From the NCBI RefSeq assembly GCF_003991155.1, contig NZ_CP031293.1: a DNA stretch of 64,000 nt; one strand, given 5' to 3'. This document shows, one piece after another, positions 6,873 to 49,223 of the stretch. Within the stretch, counting starts at the first letter, position 1; each line of letters opens with the position of its first letter. Source of the DNA: Escherichia coli. GTDB taxonomy: Bacteria > Pseudomonadota > Gammaproteobacteria > Enterobacterales > Enterobacteriaceae. The position numbers and the translations under genes are program-made. The notes under the pieces were generated by a model. That model saw only the letters and a list, made by a program, of their open reading frames with translations, searched no databases and was not told the origin of the DNA.

Positions 6873-7586
6873 TTATCGCTGAACCAACGTCGTTATCTGA
6901 TTTACAGGAACGGCAGGCCACAGGCATCCCTGGAGAGCATGGAAATCAAAGGGGGTAATCTGTGCCATTATTTCTGGCGTATCAATGCCCCCCGCGATGA
7001 TGCAATTGCAACATGGGGAAATTTGCGCCTGGATCGCACGAATAAACGGTTCGAAGGAGCGATGCGTGATTTGTTGCTGAATAAAACTTTTATCCAGCAT
7101 GACGCGGGTGAAAAGACCATCAAAAACCGCTTTCATTGTGCTATTGCCTGCGCCCAAATTACCTAACACAAGGGGATACATTTGCGATAAGGAAAAAAGA
7201 TCGCGATTATCTTTTCCTTCATCGAGATGCGGGTAATTCTCATTAATCAACAGTTCAATAAACGGATATTTTAATAGTTCGCCCGCGTAATTATCCCTGT
7301 CTAATAATAAAGTAGCCACTTGTGGGGTTAAATTAAGCCAGGCAAAGAGTTTATGTTGAATAAAAAAGTGTTGGCATGATTTTAGCAATTCCAACTGCTC
7401 AGAAAATAATTGCCAATGTTGCTCCTCGGTAAGTTGCGCTATAACCCGACTCGTCGGTATACGAACCGTACCATCTTCACTGGAGAAATGGGTAATTAAC
7501 TCAACGCCGACAAGGTCTTGCTGGTTATCTCTTATCGGCAGGAAATAGCAATCAGAATGATAAAGATTCTCCAAAAAAATCTTCAT
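6873..7586 (-). CDS. ydiV: anti-FlhD4C2 factor, degenerate EAL-like domain
   Basis: 237-aa ORF; synteny. Confidence 0.85.
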   Translation of the reverse strand: MKIFLENLYHSDCYFLPIRDNQQDLVGVELITHFSSEDGTVRIPTSRVIAQLTEEQHWQLFSEQLELLKSCQHFFIQHKLFAWLNLTPQVATLLLDRDNYAGELLKYPFIELLINENYPHLDEGKDNRDLFSLSQMYPLVLGNLGAGNSTMKAVFDGLFTRVMLDKSFIQQQITHRSFEPFIRAIQAQISPCCNCIIAGGIDTPEIMAQITPFDFHALQGCLWPAVPVNQITTLVQR

Positions 7587-7832: not shown

Positions 7833-8297
7833 CTAGATTCGTCTCGCCTGCCAGAAATTTTTCTGCCAATAAACATTATCGAGTGAGGAACGCATCACTC
7901 CCTTGCTGGTAGAGGCGTGGATAAATTGGTTGTTGGTATCGTAAATACCTACATGCAAACCATTTTGTCCGGAGCCCGTTTTGAAAAAGACCAGGTCACC
8001 AGGCAGCAACTCGTCTTTATCAATTTGCGTGCCGATAGAGGCTTGTTCTTTGGTTTCTCGGGGCAGCTGCAAATCGAAACGATCGCGCATCGTCACAACC
8101 ACAAACCCCGAACAGTCCACACCGCGCCGCGTCATGCCACCATAACGATACGGCGTGCCATGCCAGCTCTGTAGCTGGTCGTTCAAACCGGCAATAACGG
8201 TAATCGAATCAGAAAGTCTGGCATTTGGCGGCGGTGCTTTATGGTGGCTACACCCGGCCAGAAACAGTGCTGTGATCAAAATAAGGCAGAAACGCAT
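7833..8297 (-). CDS. nlpC: NlpC/P60-family lipoprotein
   Basis: 154-aa ORF with lipobox (LFLAGCSHH) and Cys/His peptidase motifs (DCSGF, HVGIY). Confidence 0.88.
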   Translation of the reverse strand: MRFCLILITALFLAGCSHHKAPPPNARLSDSITVIAGLNDQLQSWHGTPYRYGGMTRRGVDCSGFVVVTMRDRFDLQLPRETKEQASIGTQIDKDELLPGDLVFFKTGSGQNGLHVGIYDTNNQFIHASTSKGVMRSSLDNVYWQKNFWQARRI

Positions 8298-8374
8298 TCC
8301 GTACGGTTCCTCTGTTTTTTATTCTTGCATTAATTTAGCGTCGTAATTACCCGATTTTCAAGATACTAATGAAA

Positions 8375-9124
8375 TCAGATGGTCGAAATCAGCATTCTGT
8401 GACCTTCGATATCCAGACGGCGAAAATTCATCCCATAGGCCTGCGCCAGATTTGGCGGCGTGAGCACCTCTTCCCTGCGTCCACTGGCCAGCATTTTTCC
8501 ACCTTTTAGCAACCACGCCCGATGCGCATGACGCAATGTATGGTTGAGATCGTGACTGCTCATCACAATCGCCAGTCCTTGCTGACACAGCGCGCTCAGA
8601 ATTTTGTCTAACGCACTTTGTTGCGCAACATCAAGACTGTTCATAGGCTCATCAAGAAGTAGTAATTGGCCTGCGGGATTGGCTTGTGGTGTGATTTGCA
8701 GCACCACCGCAGCAAGACGTACGCGTTGCCATTCGCCGCCGGAAAGTTGATTGGTGCTACGTCCGAGTTTGTCATCAAGAGCCAGCGCCCCTGCGACATC
8801 ATTCAGTAGTTCGGTACGCGTTTTATCGTGCTGATGCAGTGTCAGGTAGTGCCAGACCGGCATTGCAAACGGCGGCGTCTGCTGTTGTGAAAGATAGGCG
8901 CGATGCAGCGCGAGTTTTGTTGCGGACCATGCTTCCAGTGGTTGCCCCGCGAACTGAATGCTTCCCTTACCGCTGGTCATTCCGGCCATTCGTGCAAGCA
9001 AGGTACTCTTACCCGCGCCGTTCGGCCCCACCAGGTGCAGGATCTCCCCAGCCCGAACCTCGCCAGAAAGCGGCCCCAGGCGGGTAGATTCCGCAACATC
9101 CTGTAACTGCATCACAATAGACAT
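8375..9124 (-). CDS. btuD: vitamin B12 ABC transporter ATP-binding protein
   Basis: 249-aa ORF with Walker [10 protein letters not shown] and signature LSGGEWQR. Confidence 0.92.
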
Positions 9125-9675
9125 TATTTTGCCAACGCCAGTTTAATGCTTTCCATCACAATGGGATCTTCCGGCGTCATATCCGGGGAAAAACGCTGGA
9201 TGACCAATCCGTCCCTGCCAACTAAAAATTTCTCAAAATTCCATAAAATATCATCAGGGTACAGCGGTGCACGACCTTTGCTGACCATACGGGCATAGAA
9301 TCCGCTCTCTTCCGGCGCGACTGCGGTCGGCGCTGCGGCAATCAATTTTTGATACAGCGGATGGCGTCCTTCGCCATTAACTTCAATCTTACTGAACATC
9401 GGGAACGTCACCCCCCATGTGGTGGTACAGTAAGTTTTAATCTCTTCATCGCTGCCCGGTTCTTGTTCCAGAAACTGGTTGCACGGGAATCCCAGCACCA
9501 CAAAACCACGATCAGCCCAGGCTTTCTGAATATTCTCCAACTGCTCATATTGCGGCGTTAAGCCACACTTTGAGGCGACATTGACAATCAACAGCACATT
9601 ACCGGCGTACTTCTCCAGCGTGGTCACTTCACCGTCGATATCTTTCACTACGGTCGTCAGAATGGAATCTTGCAT
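9124..9675 (-). CDS. btuE: glutathione peroxidase-family protein
   Basis: 183-aa ORF with [12 protein letters not shown] and WNFEKFL peroxidase motifs; sits between btuC and btuD. Confidence 0.9.
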
Positions 9676-10718: not shown

Positions 10719-10779
10719 GGTATCCATTCTGCTGAAGTGTCATGGCGTTGATTTTACGGTGACTCTTCGACAGTGAAAA

Positions 10780-10808
10780 GAAAAAAGGCCGCAGAGCGGC
10801 CTTTTTAG
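10780..10808 (-). terminator. ihfA rho-independent terminator
   Basis: ggccgc-agag-cggcc hairpin flanked by A-run and T-run. Confidence 0.65.
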
Positions 10809-10818
10809 TTAGATCAGA

Positions 10819-11118
10819 TTACTCGTCTTTGGGCGAAGCGTTTTCGACCCGGCTTTTTAACTTCTGCCCGGGTCTGAAGGTCACCACGCGCCGTGCTGTA
10901 ATGGGAATATCCTCGCCCGTTTTCGGGTTACGTCCCGGGCGTTGATTCTTATCACGCAGATCGAAGTTACCAAAACCAGAGAGTTTCACCTGTTCGCCGT
11001 TTTCCAGAGCGCGACGGATCTCTTCGAAAAACAGTTCAACCAGTTCTTTGGCATCCCGCTTGCTAAGCCCAAGCTTATCAAACAGATATTCTGACATTTC
11101 AGCTTTTGTAAGCGCCAT
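10819..11118 (-). CDS. ihfA: integration host factor alpha subunit
   Basis: 99-aa ORF ([39 protein letters not shown]...). Confidence 0.95.
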
Positions 11119-14550: not shown

Positions 14551-14573
14551 TTAATTTTTTCAAAACGCGCATA

Positions 14574-14600
14574 CAAAAAAAGCCTCCACTGGGAGGCTTT
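14574..14600 (-). terminator. pheST attenuator (leader terminator)
   Basis: agcctccactgggaggct hairpin followed by a T-run on the minus strand, between the pheM leader and pheS. Confidence 0.7.
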
Positions 14601-14646
14601 CAGGCGCTGTTTTCCGTTTCTCTTCTCACGCGCTAGCCTCCTGGAG

Positions 14647-14691
14647 TCAGGTGCTAAAGTAAAAAAAGAAGCGGAAAATAGCAGCATTCAT
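14647..14691 (-). CDS. pheM: pheST leader peptide (Phe-rich, 14 aa)
   Basis: reverse complement reads ATG AAT GCT GCT ATT TTC CGC TTC TTT TTT TAC TTT AGC ACC TGA = [14 protein letters not shown]. Confidence 0.85.
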
Positions 14692-14771
14692 TGCTTGCGT
14701 TACCTTTTGGTACTCTTCAAAAGACCTTTATTGAAAAGGCTACGGCGATAAAAGTCAATGTTTTGATGGCG

Positions 14772-31589: not shown

Positions 31590-32360
<771 letters not shown>

Positions 32361-33713
32361 TTAATGTGCTTTTTTAAGCTCTGCGATGCAGTCGGCAAAA
32401 TTTGGCAACCATTTCTCGTGCGCCAGAATCATCTCGCGTGCCAGCAGCTCAGCATCGCGATCGGAATGCACCAACGGACTAAGGTTTAGGGCCAGTAACA
32501 CATCGTTAAACTCTCCGCTAAGTGCGGCGTTGCTGGCAGCAATCTCGAAGCCTTTAATGGTGTGAATCAGCCCCATCACTTTATCATCGAAATGCGTAAT
32601 GCGCGGATGTGGCGTCGCGCCATCGCGCCCCAGCGTACAGGTCATTTCTACCGCCCAGTCTGCCGGAATATTATCAATATGCCCATGATGCGGGATATTA
32701 ACGTAATGTTCAGCTTGCTTGTCGTTGTAGATAGCGTTGATCACTTCGCACGCTGCATCAGAGTAATAAGCCCCACCGCGCTGTTCCAGTTCTTTCGGCT
32801 TAACTTTCAACTCCGGGTTTTTATATAGCTCAAAAAGTTGTTTCTCGACTTTCTGTACTACCTGCGCTCGTGCGCCGCCTTTGTAGTATTCGCCCATTTC
32901 AATAGCCAGCATCTCTTTTTGCTTGAAGTAATAAAGCAAATAAGAACACGGCAACAGATTCAGAGAACGAATTAAGCCTTCGCTAAATGGCAGATCGAAA
33001 ATATTTTTAACGCCAGATGCTTTTAACTGCCCGGATGCCACACCATCAAGCAATTCGGCAAAGCGTGATTTGCCATTTACCAGCACATCTTTAATGAACA
33101 CCATATGGTTGAGGCCGAACAGATCGATAGATAAATCATCGCTGTCTTTCAGCATCAGAACATCGCGAATAAACATCTTCATGCCTATCGGAATATTACA
33201 CACGCCGATAAAGCGTTTAAATCCGGTATGACGATAAACGGCTTCAGTGACCATTCCCGCCGGGTTAGTGAAGTTAATCACCCATGCATTCGGACAAAGT
33301 TCTTCGACATCTTTTACGATGTCAAAAATCACCGGAATGGTACGCAGACCTTTAAACAGACCGCCCGCGCCGTTAGTTTCCTGACCAAGATAACCATGAC
33401 TTAATGGAATACGTTCATCCAGTTCGCGCGCCGGTAATTGGCCTACGCGCAGTTGGGTAGTAACGAAATCAGCATCTTTCAATGCTTCGCGGCGATCCAG
33501 CGTTTTATAAAGCTTCATCGGGACGCCAGCGTTATCAATCATCCGTTGGCAGAGATCAAAAATAATATCCAGTTTCTCTTTACCATCTTCGACATCCACC
33601 AGCCATAATTCGCTGACCGGCAATTCGTGATAACGCTTAATAAATCCTTCCAGTAACTCCGGGGTATAGCTGCTCCCGCCACCAATAGTGACGACTTTTA
33701 ATTTCTGGCTCAT
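32361..33713 (-). CDS. chbF: 6-phospho-beta-glucosidase, GH4, NAD/Mn-dependent
   Basis: 450-aa ORF with N-terminal Rossmann motif (KVVTIGGGSSYTPEL). Confidence 0.92.
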   Translation of the reverse strand: MSQKLKVVTIGGGSSYTPELLEGFIKRYHELPVSELWLVDVEDGKEKLDIIFDLCQRMIDNAGVPMKLYKTLDRREALKDADFVTTQLRVGQLPARELDERIPLSHGYLGQETNGAGGLFKGLRTIPVIFDIVKDVEELCPNAWVINFTNPAGMVTEAVYRHTGFKRFIGVCNIPIGMKMFIRDVLMLKDSDDLSIDLFGLNHMVFIKDVLVNGKSRFAELLDGVASGQLKASGVKNIFDLPFSEGLIRSLNLLPCSYLLYYFKQKEMLAIEMGEYYKGGARAQVVQKVEKQLFELYKNPELKVKPKELEQRGGAYYSDAACEVINAIYNDKQAEHYVNIPHHGHIDNIPADWAVEMTCTLGRDGATPHPRITHFDDKVMGLIHTIKGFEIAASNAALSGEFNDVLLALNLSPLVHSDRDAELLAREMILAHEKWLPNFADCIAELKKAH

Positions 33714-33817: not shown

Positions 33818-34149
33818 TTACTGATTAAATTCAGTCAATTTCTTACGATAGCTCTTAGGCGTAAAGGACGTTAATTTCTTAAACGTTTTAATAAACAAAC
33901 TCGGGCTACTATAACCGGCCTCAAACGCAATATCCGTCACTGAATAGTTGGTCATTTCCAGTTGTTTTTTGGCAAAATTAATACGGATTTCATTAATAAT
34001 CTGCATTGGCGTTTTGCCATAATATCGTTGAGTCGCTCGCGTCAAATATTCCTGTGATTTGGCTGACAACGTCACCATATTCTCCAGCGCCGATTCACTA
34101 AACTGCTCTTTATCATGCATCTTTTCTACCGTACTTTTCAGCCACTGCG
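33818..34149 (-). pseudogene. chbR: chbR 3' fragment (AraC-type HTH domain), separated from the 5' part by IS1
   Basis: ORF 33818..34120 encodes an AraC/XylS HTH region; the two fragments minus one copy of the 9-bp duplication total 843 nt = 280 codons plus stop, the intact ChbR length. Confidence 0.85.
34141..34149. repeat. IS1 target-site duplication, left copy (GCCACTGCG)
   Basis: identical 9-mer directly flanks both IS1 ends. Confidence 0.9.
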
Positions 34150-34204
34150 GGTGATGCTGCCAACTTACTGATTTAGTGTATGATGGTGTTTTTGAGGTGC
34201 TCCA

Positions 34205-34480
34205 GTGGCTTCTGTTTCTATCAGCTGTCCCTCCTGTTCAGCTACTGACGGAGTGGTGCGTAACGGCAAAAGCACCGCCGGACATCAGCGCTATCTCTGC
34301 TCTCATTGCCGTAAAACATGGCAACTGCAGTTCACTTACACCGCTTCTCAACCCGGTACGCACCAGAAAATCATTGATATGGCCATGAATGGCGTTGGAT
34401 GCCGGGCAACCGCCCGCATTATGGGCGTTGGCCTCAACACGATTTTCCGCCATTTAAAAAACTCAGGCCGCAGTCGGTAA
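34205..34480 (+). CDS. insA: IS1 InsA (transposition repressor)
   Basis: 91-aa [46 protein letters not shown]... (zinc-finger-like Cys pairs). Confidence 0.93.
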
Positions 34481-34902
34481 CCTCGCGCATACAGCCGGGC
34501 AGTGACGTCATCGTCTGCGCGGAAATGGACGAACAGTGGGGATACGTCGGGGCTAAATCGCGCCAGCGCTGGCTGTTTTACGCGTATGACAGGCTCCGGA
34601 AGACGGTTGTTGCGCACGTATTCGGTGAACGCACTATGGCGACGCTGGGGCGTCTTATGAGCCTGCTGTCACCCTTTGACGTGGTGATATGGATGACGGA
34701 TGGCTGGCCGCTGTATGAATCCCGCCTGAAGGGAAAGCTGCACGTAATCAGCAAGCGATATACGCAGCGAATTGAGCGGCATAACCTGAATCTGAGGCAG
34801 CACCTGGCACGGCTGGGACGGAAGTCGCTGTCGTTTTCAAAATCGGTGGAGCTGCATGACAAAGTCATCGGGCATTATCTGAACATAAAACACTATCAAT
34901 AA
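34399..34902 (+). CDS. insB: IS1 InsB frame (expressed as InsAB' transposase by -1 frameshift)
   Basis: 167-aa ORF in the -1 frame relative to insA, overlapping the A6C slippery site. Confidence 0.9.
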
Positions 34903-34917
34903 GTTGGAGTCATTACC

Positions 34918-34926
34918 GCCACTGCG
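34918..34926. repeat. IS1 target-site duplication, right copy (GCCACTGCG)
   Basis: identical to 34141-34149. Confidence 0.9.
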
Positions 34927-35437
34927 GTACATCATCAATCACCTGTTCTTCGCGGTAATGACGTAAACGGTTAATGACATAAAAAGTAACCATCTCAACA
35001 AACTCTTCCAGCCCTGTTTCGCGGAAATTCAATGAAGAAATCACTGTTTCCACATAGGTGAGAAAAGCGTTATTGGTCCGGTATACCTGCGAAGCTACAA
35101 AGCAATAAGGCAACAACGGCAGGTAATGCTGCTCAAAAAAGCGTTTACTGATCCCAACGTTCAATATGCGCGTGGCACCAAACTCATAAAAACTTTGATG
35201 GTGCGAACCTAACGGAATAAAAACAAAATCGCCCCGTTCCAGTAACACGCGCTTACCGTTAATCTCCTGGAAATAACGCCCGGTTAATACCAGAGTAAAT
35301 TCATAATAGTCGTGCTGATGCAGTCCGCTGATACTCTCAGTTTTGTTATAGATAAACACATGGAAATTTTTGCCATTAAACAACTGCTGTTCTCGGGCGG
35401 TGGCAATTTCCGGCGCGTTAATCACTGGCTGCATCAT
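34918..35437 (-). pseudogene. chbR: chbR 5' fragment (N-terminal cupin-like sensing domain), truncated by IS1
   Basis: ORF 34913..35437 reads from the chbR start codon into the IS1 right end and terminates there. Confidence 0.85.
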
Positions 35438-35444
35438 CGACTCC

Positions 35445-35795
35445 TTATGCCTTCAGTTTTTCATGAAGCTCAATTAATTCAGTAATCAGTTCACGCGCAA
35501 GCATGGACGTCATTAAATGATCCTGAGCGTGGACCAGCACCAGACTCACTTTCATCTTACCTTCGCCCGCATCGCCTTCAATCAGTTTCGTCTGTACCAG
35601 ATGCGCTTCATTCAATGCCATCCGTGACTGATCCATCATGGCTTTTGCTGCGGCAAAATCGCCCTGCTTCGCCTGTTTCAGTGCCGCATACGCCAGGCTG
35701 CGCGCTTGTCCGGAGTTGATGATAAGCCCCATCACCACTTCTTCCAGCTCTTCAGCTTCTGTTTGCGTATCGGGAATGTTATCGAGATCCATCAT
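35445..35795 (-). CDS. chbA: PTS chitobiose-specific IIA component
   Basis: 116-aa ORF. Confidence 0.9.
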
Positions 35796-35845: not shown

Positions 35846-37204
35846 TTAAAATTTCAGGGCGTTAGCGATATCTTCTTCGCTCTCTTCTTTATCAATCGCG
35901 TTTTGTGCTTTGTTAGCGACCACAACAAAGGGCAGATAAATTAACGTTGCGATACCAAGGTTGAAGAGTGCAACCAGCAATGCGGCGACGCTACCGTTGG
36001 TGTTAAAGAAGGCTCCCAGACCGGTTGGCATGGTCCACGGTGCAATATTGGTCACCGGAGGAATAATGCCCATGTAGTACGCTGCCAGGGTGATTGCCGC
36101 CAGAATCGGTTGTACCAGTACAAACGGGATAAACATCACCGGGTTCATGATAATTGGCAGACCAAACAGAATCGGTTCGTTAATCTGGAAGATGCCGGAC
36201 GGCAGCGCCAGTTTTGCCACCTGACGATAATCAGCACGGCGAGAGGCGATAAAGATAGCCAGGATCAGACCTAAAGTCGCACCACTGCCCCCAAGGAAAA
36301 TAAAGGAGTCCAGCATCGGCTTGGCCCAGATATGGAAGGTCTTACCGGCTGCCAGCGCCGCTTCGACGGAACCATATTGCTGATAGGTCGCGATATTTTC
36401 CAGCGCCCACGGCGTCATAATGCCGTTGTCCAGTGCGGTCAGCGCCAGCGCACCATGAATACCGAAGAACCAGAGCAGTGGAACAAAGATCACATAGGCC
36501 CAGCCCACCACGCTACCCAACGATGCCAGTGGGGTTGAGATGGTATCCATAATGATCTGATGGAAGTTGGTGCCCCAGGTATTCAACGCCCAGGCAATAA
36601 TCCCCATCACGGAAAGAATAATAAAGCCGGGAATTAAAGCCGAGAAGGAACGCGATACTGAAGCAGGTACGCTATCGGGCAATTTAATGACCCAATTGCG
36701 GCGGACAATAAAGGTAAACATTTCTGCCACCACCAGGCCAATAATAATCCCGGAGATGATATTCGCCCCACCTAACCAGTTTGCGCCAACCGCATAGGCC
36801 TCACCGACACTATATGGGGTGACGGTCATAAATGCTGCAACGGATAACAACCCAGCCGCCAGCGCATCGACTTTACGCTCTTCTGCCAGCGCCATGCCAA
36901 TAAAGAACGGTGCCATTAAAGACATTATCCCTAATGTTCCGTTATATACGTTGCCGCCAATACCTTTCAGACCATTAAGTGTTTCAATGGTTGAGGCATC
37001 CAGGCGAATACCTAAGGAATAAAAAAACGACCCCTCCCCAAAGCTTAGAAAAACGTTGTTAATTAATACAAACATGGCCCCCGCAAGGGTTAACGGCATT
37101 AAGCGAATAAAGCCATTTTTGATTGCATTAACGTGTGGCTGCTTTCCTATTTTAACTGCAAAAGGGAGGAGTACCTTTTCAAGCGATGCAATAACATTAC
37201 TCAT
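35846..37204 (-). CDS. chbC: PTS chitobiose-specific IIC permease
   Basis: 452-aa polytopic ORF. Confidence 0.92.
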
Positions 37205-37287: not shown

Positions 37288-37608
37288 TTAATTTGCTGCG
37301 GCTTTTTTAATCGCTGCAACCGCAGCCTTAAGCACGCCTAAACCATCGACTTTGCCATAAAGCAACGAGTCAATTACTTCAACCGGTTTGTTGGGTAACA
37401 AACGCTGGATTTCGGGCAACATATAAGCAATCTGCGGCCCTAATAACACGACATCGGCATTCTGACCTTTTTCACCAGCCAGTGTTTCCGGAAATGCTTC
37501 AATAATGACCGGAACTTCATATTTTTCTGCCTGTGCGCGCATTTTTGATACCAGTAAAGAGGTAGACATGCCCGCAGAACAAAACAGATAAATGTGTTTC
37601 TTTTCCAT
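37288..37608 (-). CDS. chbB: PTS chitobiose-specific IIB component
   Basis: 106 aa from [19 protein letters not shown] (active-site Cys); internal ATG of the 119-aa ORF. Confidence 0.9.
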
Positions 37609-48416: not shown

Positions 48417-49223
48417 ATGAAATTTGTCTCTTTTAATATCAACGGCCTGCGCGCCAGACCTCACCAGCTTGAAGCCATCGTCGAAAAGCACCAGCCGGAT
48501 GTGATTGGCCTGCAGGAGACAAAAGTTCATGACGATATGTTTCCACTCGAAGAGGTGGCGAAGCTCGGCTACAACGTGTTTTATCACGGGCAGAAAGGCC
48601 ATTACGGCGTGGCATTGTTGACCAAAGAGACGCCGATTGCTGTGCGTCGCGGCTTCCCTGACGACGGCGAAGAGGCACAACGGCGAATTATTATGGCGGA
48701 AATCCCCTCGCCGCTGGGTAATGTCACCGTGATCAACGGTTACTTCCCACAGGGCGAAAGTCGCGACCATCCGATTAAATTCCCGGCGAAAGCGCAGTTT
48801 TATCAGAACCTGCAAAACTATCTCGAAACCGAACTTAAGCGTGAAAATCCGGTGCTGATTATGGGCGATATGAATATCAGTCCTGGCGACCTGGATATTG
48901 GCATTGGCGAAGAGAACCGTAAGCGCTGGCTGCGTACCGGAAAATGTTCTTTCCTTCCGGAGGAACGCGAATGGATGGAGAGACTGATGAGCTGGGGGTT
49001 GGTCGATACCTTCCGCCATGCGAATCCGCAAACAGCAGATCGTTTCTCATGGTTTGATTACCGCTCAAAAGGTTTTGACGATAACCGTGGTCTGCGCATC
49101 GACCTGCTGCTCGCCAGCCAACCGCTGGCAGAATGTTGCGTAGAAACCGGCATCGACTATGAAATCCGCAGCATGGAAAAACCGTCCGATCACGCGCCTG
49201 TGTGGGCGACCTTCCGCCGCTAA
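48417..49223 (+). CDS. xthA: exodeoxyribonuclease III
   Basis: 268 aa from [18 protein letters not shown]. Confidence 0.95.

Follow-up and report, generated by a model that had tools for sequence, protein, structure and literature searches.

An IS1 insertion at the start of the DNA-binding region of chbR in a small clade of Escherichia coli

What has broken chbR in this stretch of the E. coli chromosome, and what would the break mean for the chb (chitobiose) operon? The window (the whole 64-kb stretch of DNA analysed here) carries the operon on the minus strand, between osmE and katE, with the gene order chbB-chbC-chbA-chbR-chbF-chbG. The broken gene lies between chbA and chbF, as expected for ChbR in chbBCARFG, and its two pieces are separated by a single insertion sequence (Table 1). 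The best explanation, with a probability of roughly 0.93, is that an IS1 that looks active entered chbR by simple transposition in the ancestor of what is now a small E. coli clade, the allele most likely persisting through dispensability of the operon.

Table 1. Coordinates of the interrupted chbR gene, its IS1 element and the neighbouring chb genes in the window.
Feature	Position	Strand	Remarks
chbG, chitin disaccharide deacetylase	31590-32348	-	intact; last operon gene, downstream of the insertion
chbF (celF), 6-phospho-beta-glucosidase	32361-33713	-	intact; downstream of the insertion in the operon
chbR 3' fragment, duplicated nt 512-520 to stop codon	33818-34149	-	AraC-type double HTH; NF007633 positions 181-280
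9-bp target-site duplication GCCACTGCG, left copy	34141-34149
Complete IS1, 768 bp	34150-34917	+	ends and length read from the sequence; RefSeq transposase label 'IS1-like element IS1B family'
IRL, left 23-bp terminal inverted repeat GGTGATGCTGCCAACTTACTGAT	34150-34172	+	weak IS1 promoter overlaps IRL
insA, 91 aa, GTG start	34205-34480	+	InsA is the repressor and DNA-binding part of the transposase
insAB' transposase gene, 232-aa product	34205-34902	+	-1 frameshift at the A6C motif AAAAAAC, 34456-34462
IRR, right 23-bp terminal inverted repeat, reverse complement GGTAATGACTCCAACTTATTGAT	34895-34917	+
9-bp target-site duplication GCCACTGCG, right copy	34918-34926		chbR nt 512-520
chbR 5' fragment, codons 1-173 and first base of codon 174	34918-35437	-	cupin/AraC-type ligand-binding domain; NF007633 positions 1-173
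chbA, PTS IIA	35445-35795	-	intact, upstream of the insertion
chbC, PTS IIC	35846-37204	-	intact, upstream of the insertion
chbB, PTS IIB	37288-37608	-	intact, upstream of the insertion

The inserted element is a complete IS1, as the earlier note had stated, and the coordinates given there are all correct. All the defining features of IS1 that can be tested in sequence are present, namely the length and ends, the insA-insB frameshift at the A6C motif, and the target duplication. The insA and insB frames are both open; InsA matches the zinc-binding domain NF050000 and positions 1-81 of the IS1 transposase model, and the 232-residue InsAB' scores 243.8 bits against the NF033558 IS1 transposase model (cutoff 100), covering profile positions 1-199 of 199. 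RefSeq annotates insAB' as intact with a programmed frameshift. The terminal sequences GGTGATGCTGCCAACTTACTGAT and GGTAATGACTCCAACTTATTGAT are the standard (canonical) IRL and IRR of IS1, in agreement with the identity of the whole element to annotated copies given below. The inverted repeats had been described as intact, which holds for both ends, but they do not repeat each other perfectly: IRL and IRR are complementary at 18 of 23 positions and are thus imperfect inverted repeats. With coding and end sequences intact, this copy looks active for transposition. A promoter scan picks out CTGCCA-16-TATGAT (34157-34184, plus strand) as a promoter-like site overlapping IRL, which fits the published position of P-IS1, the weak IS1 promoter described as overlapping IRL (PMC12428005). 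The same source lists as hallmarks of IS1 a length of 768 bp, IRL and IRR, insA and insB, the A6C motif, a 232-aa InsAB', and an 8- or 9-bp duplication.

Over its full length, the element is 92-100% identical to RefSeq-annotated IS1 copies. It shares its length, 23-bp ends, A6C-dependent InsAB', and 9-bp duplication with the IS1 family of E. coli K-12 (IS1A to IS1F). A few bases separate it from IS1A-annotated copies (98.7-99.1% identity), with nothing different in kind, and it is 98.3-99.6% identical to other copies labelled IS1B family by RefSeq. The 64-kb window contains a single IRL and a single IRR, hence a solitary IS1; a composite IS1 transposon (Tn9-like) was considered and ruled out, no second IS1 copy being present in the 64-kb window. 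An Rfam scan of the window returned nothing at the chbR::IS1 locus, its only finds being the Phe leader and STnc540.

On both sides, the element is bordered by the nonamer GCCACTGCG, a perfect 9-bp duplication as previously claimed. A 9-bp match at a fixed offset would arise by chance with a probability of 4^-9, about 4e-6. In alignments, the repeat seems to span 10 bp, with a G at 34150 and another at 34927; the canonical IS1 end fixes the duplication length at 9 bp, not 10. When IS1 and one GCCACTGCG are removed, an 843-nt minus-strand ORF of 280 aa plus stop is restored, as the earlier note had computed. This restored chbR is 100% identical to the uninterrupted chbR of many genomes, and its product matches the NCBIfam equivalog NF007633 with 585.4 bits (cutoff 264), residues 1-280 aligning with profile positions 1-280.

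The insA gene reads opposite to chbR, which starts at 35437 on the minus strand and is broken after nt 520, the first base of codon 174. What survives as an ORF (34913-35437) is 174 aa long: 173 native residues are followed by an Arg and then by a TAA contributed by IS1. The 3' fragment has neither a promoter nor a start of its own, and an internal ATG at 34120 would yield 100 aa. Both pieces are flagged as pseudogene fragments by RefSeq, and the window holds no intact functional chbR. In the restored protein, Pfam recognises Cupin_2 (28-81) and AraC_binding (38-81), then HTH_AraC (190-223 and 234-273) and HTH_18 (202-273). Alignments with SoxS, RamA, and RobA start at ChbR residue about 164-166, the start of the DNA-binding fold; since they begin there, the IS1 break falls at the very start of the DNA-binding domain of ChbR. 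The earlier placement at about codon 173, between the two domains, is thus roughly right, the exact break being the first base of codon 174 at the start of the DNA-binding domain. As read from the frames, the AraC-type DNA-binding domain is cut off from the chbR promoter and start codon, and the previously proposed ChbR ORF lacking this domain corresponds to residues 1-173 plus Arg, then stop.

The 1,620-bp locus was looked for in 5,426 complete E. coli genomes and recurs exactly, as one alignment piece with 100% identity, in three chromosomes. These are EC0585 (human urine, Zhuhai), CUVET16-465 (cat urine, Bangkok), and CREC-544 (human rectal swab, Incheon); the sequencing was done by separate groups in China, Thailand, and Korea. 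The window shows no difference from EC0585 over 13.6 kb and 3 SNPs over 64 kb; over 13.6 kb, it differs once from CUVET16-465, and CREC-544 carries a 1-bp indel in chbC. CREC-544 belongs to ST457 (PMC5884925) and has been used as an ST457 reference (PMC9860340). In all three carriers, RefSeq annotates a transposase of the IS1B family with a chbR pseudogene fragment on each side; the chbR::IS1 allele is already recorded in the public annotation of the same clone and is not a private mutation. In the literature library searched, no paper on this allele came up.

This distribution bears directly on whether IS1 was placed in chbR by a repeat collapse or a chimeric join. E. coli carries IS1 in multiple copies, with 11 matching places in the median genome, and such repeats are a classic source of misassembly. 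The carrier chromosomes, however, have just two to three IS1 places, leaving little scope for confusion. Three independent complete assemblies agree on the junctions, on the 9-bp duplication, and on the IS1 itself (identical at 768/768 positions, against 92-99.6% identity to IS1 copies in other genomes), and the window itself is a fourth, slightly different sequence, given its 3 SNPs relative to EC0585. Moreover, a misjoin would not yield a clean target duplication that restores the ORF upon IS1 removal. The identical junctions exclude the assembly artefact that the earlier note had named among its refuting scenarios, the residual chance of such an error being negligible.

The comparison with related genomes that had been proposed yields a close relative with an empty site. 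In WP2-W18-ESBL-08, chbR is uninterrupted and GCCACTGCG occurs once, and the flanks differ from the window by 4 SNPs in 30.8 kb. This genome has the same lineage-specific protein alleles of katE, chbG, ydjO, nadE, and cho. This near-identical empty-site relative rests on a direct 30.8-kb comparison with one genome; ranking by a 25-kb query was uninformative, genomes with any nearby IS1 reaching 100% coverage and outranking empty-site relatives. The identical uninterrupted chbR allele also occurs in at least 21 further genomes among the matches listed. Besides, chbB, chbC, chbA, chbF, and chbG are all undamaged in the window. The empty site in a 4-SNP relative and the intact state of the other chb genes argue for a relatively recent event, in agreement with the earlier note; the insertion is recent relative to the divergence from close empty-site relatives, yet common to a small clade.

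IS1 has entered chbR on other occasions. A query with IS1 oriented as in the window retrieved 19 genomes, comprising the three carriers and 16 others with a same-orientation IS1 in chbR, chbC, or chbF. Pieces were joined on one strand only, hence a separate search was made with IS1 reversed; it added 17 genomes, for a total of 36 of the 5,426 (0.7%). An orientation bias, suspected when the first 19 genomes all showed the window orientation, thus came from the way in which the query ascertained genomes. In chbR, IS1 was mapped to at least 14 distinct sites, in both orientations. With IS1 as in the window, the duplicated chbR nucleotides are 79-87, 185-193, 202-210, 336-344, 512-520, 646-654, 669-677, and 670-677; with IS1 in the opposite orientation, they are 68-75, 76-83, 233-241, 535-543 or 535-542, 669-677, and 807-815. 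The site at nt 512-520 is found only in the clade formed by EC0585, CUVET16-465, and CREC-544. Five genomes that aligned in one piece with the reversed-IS1 query had been thought to carry a reversed IS1 at this same site, a view dropped once their junctions were located at nt 535-543 (or 535-542), 15-23 bp away. Like the present allele, the other natural chbR::IS1 alleles have an 8- or 9-bp duplication and pseudogene pieces that are annotated in nearly all of them; unlike it, they are independent events in unrelated strains, some of them involving other IS1 variants. All simple chbR or chbC insertions mapped show a duplication of 8 or 9 bp. The deletion-associated IS1 copies in TO6 and ES4 show none, and deletion derivatives occur too.

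Does this recurrence reveal an advantage of losing chbR? Inactivation of chbR or of the chb operon could be beneficial in host-associated E. coli, the recurrent hits then being convergent positive selection. The number of distinct sites in both orientations would fit such a view, as would the further hits in chbC and chbF and the presence of the ST457 allele in human and cat isolates from three countries. Two 9-bp targets have, furthermore, been hit repeatedly by different IS1 variants: two variants are found at nt 669-677 in the window orientation, and three at nt 535-543/535-542 in the opposite one. In contrast, repeated hits on one nonamer in both orientations are expected of a mutational hot spot, the exact site being of no consequence to selection, and just 0.7% of the genomes are affected.

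Control genes also speak to this question. Queries of the same design, placing that IS1 in the middle of 852 nt of host DNA, were built for three other genes of the window. In the window orientation, IS1 was found in 19 genomes for chbR (41% GC), in 20 for ydiV (42% GC), in 20 for ydjO (35% GC), and in one for xthA (53% GC), where it is inserted in ydjY rather than in xthA; this comparison covers three genes and counts genomes, not independent events. IS1 has long been known to prefer AT-rich DNA, a preference reportedly established by Galas, Calos and Miller in 1980 and by Zerbib et al. in 1985. The equal counts in the AT-matched ydiV and ydjO, with almost none in the GC-rich xthA, fit this preference rather than special selection, and recurrence as a sign of selection became unnecessary. 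The comparison shows that chbR is not exceptional as an IS1 target, its rate being typical of AT-rich dispensable genes, though weak selection might play some part. An advantage of chbR or chb loss as the cause of the recurrent hits is therefore unlikely. Less likely again is a more specific version, according to which ChbR loss is positively selected in extraintestinal or host-adapted E. coli (e.g., by keeping ChiX free or saving cost), the allele aided the spread of the ST457-related clade between humans and pets in East and South-East Asia, and the hits at nt 535-543 and 669-677 are convergent adaptive events.

The structural steps of the transposition can be read from the sequence, and nothing in it speaks against them. 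The IS1 transposase cut GCCACTGCG (nt 512-520 of chbR) with a 9-bp stagger, and repair then duplicated these 9 bp on either side of the 768-bp element. The gene was presumably targeted because it is AT-rich (41% GC), the kind of DNA preferred by IS1. With the chbR frame ending after residue 173 and one Arg, the DNA-binding domain would be lost, and the truncated ChbR could not activate, leaving the chb operon non-inducible, as far as the known chb regulon indicates. Polarity would add to this: IS1 insertions have a classical polar effect whichever way they point, and with IS1 between chbA and chbF, even transcripts that read through should give reduced expression of chbF and chbG. The allele most likely persists through dispensability of the operon in the niches of the lineage. 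A weak promoter-like site is observed in the chbR-chbF spacer (33800-33772, minus strand) and could allow some chbF/chbG expression; the number of promoter-like sites corresponds to that expected by chance from shuffled sequence.

The regulatory part of this prediction follows from the role of ChbR. A review that cites Plumbridge and Pellegrini 2004 describes NagC and ChbR as repressing chbBCARFG without inducer, induction requiring a second signal that turns ChbR into an activator, and chb expression as dependent on activation by ChbR (PMC3551598). Since ChbR is the chitobiose-dependent activator required for induction (with CAP), the operon should be non-inducible, and the expected phenotype is that of a non-inducible operon, not of a deregulated one. 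The net phenotype is expected to be no growth on chitobiose and no chbR route to cellobiose-positive mutants. Another review describes ChbR-dependent chb mRNA as a decoy that titrates the ChiX sRNA (PMC4098024, citing Plumbridge and Pellegrini 2004); no chitobiose-induced chb mRNA would be expected to play this role in carriers. In a preprint, deletion of chbR improved growth on cellobiose when the operon was driven by a constitutive promoter (bioRxiv 10.1101/086900). This result is consistent with the repressor face of ChbR and does not apply to the native promoter. Of the points treated here, the polarity on chbF/chbG, the activator role, the clade-level distribution, and the commonplace background rate go beyond the earlier note.

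The insertion might instead have rewired the operon rather than silenced it, either by an outward IS1 promoter driving chbF and chbG or by the free 100-aa C-terminal fragment (ATG at 34120) acting as a ligand-independent regulator, like the isolated C-terminal domains of some AraC-family proteins. A -35-like hexamer, TTGGCA, is indeed present on the outward-reading strand of IRL, but the promoter scan gives nothing like a sigma-70 site that points outward from IRL on the minus strand; at 17-bp spacing, TGAAAA is the best -10 candidate (3/6). As for the fragment, its 100-aa ORF retains ChbR profile positions 181-280, whereas the first helix of the MarA/SoxS-type fold is missing (the SoxS alignment starts at ChbR residue 164) and no recognisable ribosome-binding site precedes the ATG. 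The natural IS1 insertions, spread from nt 68 to nt 815 in both orientations, point to simple loss of function rather than to a specific truncated product. A precedent for activation exists in that IS elements upstream of the chb promoter are reported to activate the cryptic operon (Parker and Hall 1990). Weighed together, these observations make rewiring very improbable.

The classical polar IS1 mutations of the gal and lac operons, reportedly described by Jordan, Saedler and Starlinger and by Fiandt, Szybalski and Malamy, likewise place IS1 inside a polycistronic sugar operon, where it breaks one cistron, with reduced expression expected for the distal genes whatever the orientation. In contrast to gal and lac, the cistron interrupted here is the operon's own activator, and the loss of induction is predicted to dominate over polarity. 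Cellobiose use gained when IS insertions activate the cryptic cel (chb) operon, as reported by Parker and Hall in 1990 and by Kachroo et al. in 2007, concerns the same operon, IS1 being among the elements involved. In those cases, the insertions are located upstream of the promoter or in nagC, in combination with gain-of-function changes in chbR, whereas the present insertion lies within chbR and destroys it, which would block the evolutionary route to cellobiose, the opposite of cel activation.

The event is a textbook case of an IS element inserted within a gene, and such insertions are commonplace in dispensable genes that are AT-rich. As a background rate, such genes of about 0.8 kb carry IS1 in about 20 of 5,426 genomes per orientation, and a GC-rich neighbour in almost none; at this rate, a single clean IS1 insertion in an AT-rich dispensable gene is unsurprising, and the finding matters little beyond bookkeeping. 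Within that bookkeeping, the allele offers a clean marker, typable by PCR, for the small clade of EC0585, CUVET16-465, and CREC-544, whose complete genomes are near-identical and of which CREC-544 is published as ST457. Carriers are predicted to be unable to use chitobiose or to evolve cellobiose use via chbR, and metabolic models based on gene presence would get their chitobiose use wrong.

IS1 insertion into chbR, the regulator gene of the chitobiose operon chbBCARFG, recurs at particular nine-nucleotide targets in other complete E. coli genomes. The segment at nt 669-677 of the restored gene is clearly an IS1 hot spot, having received at least four separate insertions in unrelated genomes. 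These events include 9-bp duplications made by two IS1 variants, one insertion with an 8-bp duplication (at 670-677), and one IS1 in the opposite orientation. The segment at nt 535-543, located 15-23 bp from the IS1 site of the window, is a second hot spot. It has been used by three different IS1 variants (an IS1A-like element, a copy flanked by an 8-bp duplication, and IS1X2), all of them in the orientation opposite to that of the window's element. Coordinates of both targets, together with those of two RNA features of the window, are listed below.

IS1 targets in chbR and Rfam matches in the window
Feature	chbR position (nt)	Window position	Strand	Target sequence	Loci or basis
IS1 target in chbR	669-677	33984-33992		CGGATTTCA (plus strand)	L002, L010, L011, L012, L026
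Second IS1 target in chbR	535-543	34118-34126		CATCTTTTC	L020 to L023
STnc540 sRNA		10719-10877	minus		Rfam, gathering threshold; downstream of or overlapping ihfA
pheST Phe leader		14573-14697	minus		Rfam, gathering threshold

Damage elsewhere in the chb operon has also been observed. In CREC-544 (L001), a near-identical genome sharing the chbR::IS1 allele of the window, chbC (locus 8029-9386; window equivalent 35846-37204) is frameshifted by a 1-bp deletion absent from the window and from EC0585 and CUVET16-465, the two other such genomes. This frameshift stems either from an error in sequencing or from a second hit to an operon that is putatively already silent. Strain L6-21 (L023) combines the IS1 at nt 535-543 with an IS903B within chbF and a frameshifted chbC, which looks like the stepwise decay of the whole operon following loss of its regulator. 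Strains TO6 (L017) and ES4 (L008) display deletions associated with IS1, without target duplication: TO6 lacks a segment from chbR nt ~653 into chbF, and ES4 harbors a truncated chbF and two IS1 copies. In strain MLI110 (L025), IS1 lies at chbR nt 807-815, about 10 codons short of the stop, and the shortened gene is annotated in RefSeq as an intact protein (WP_247175564.1) that may be a functional C-terminal variant of ChbR.

Over its 64 kb, the window differs from EC0585 at only three positions (13094, 52289, and 63406), and therefore derives from another member of this clone or from a different version of the assembly. The interval between thrS and yniD, a locus occupied by the arpB pseudogene in K-12, contains an espL1-like gene (18515-20413; "type III secretion system effector") that is intact. 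At gathering threshold, the Rfam scan of the window returned no matches beyond STnc540 and the Phe leader.

Among 5,426 complete E. coli genomes, IS1 was found inside or adjoining the AT-rich control genes ydiV (window 6873-7586) and ydjO (27744-28547) in 20 genomes each, in one orientation, and the GC-rich xthA (48417-49223) in a single genome. These counts provide a useful background rate when weighing IS1 findings.
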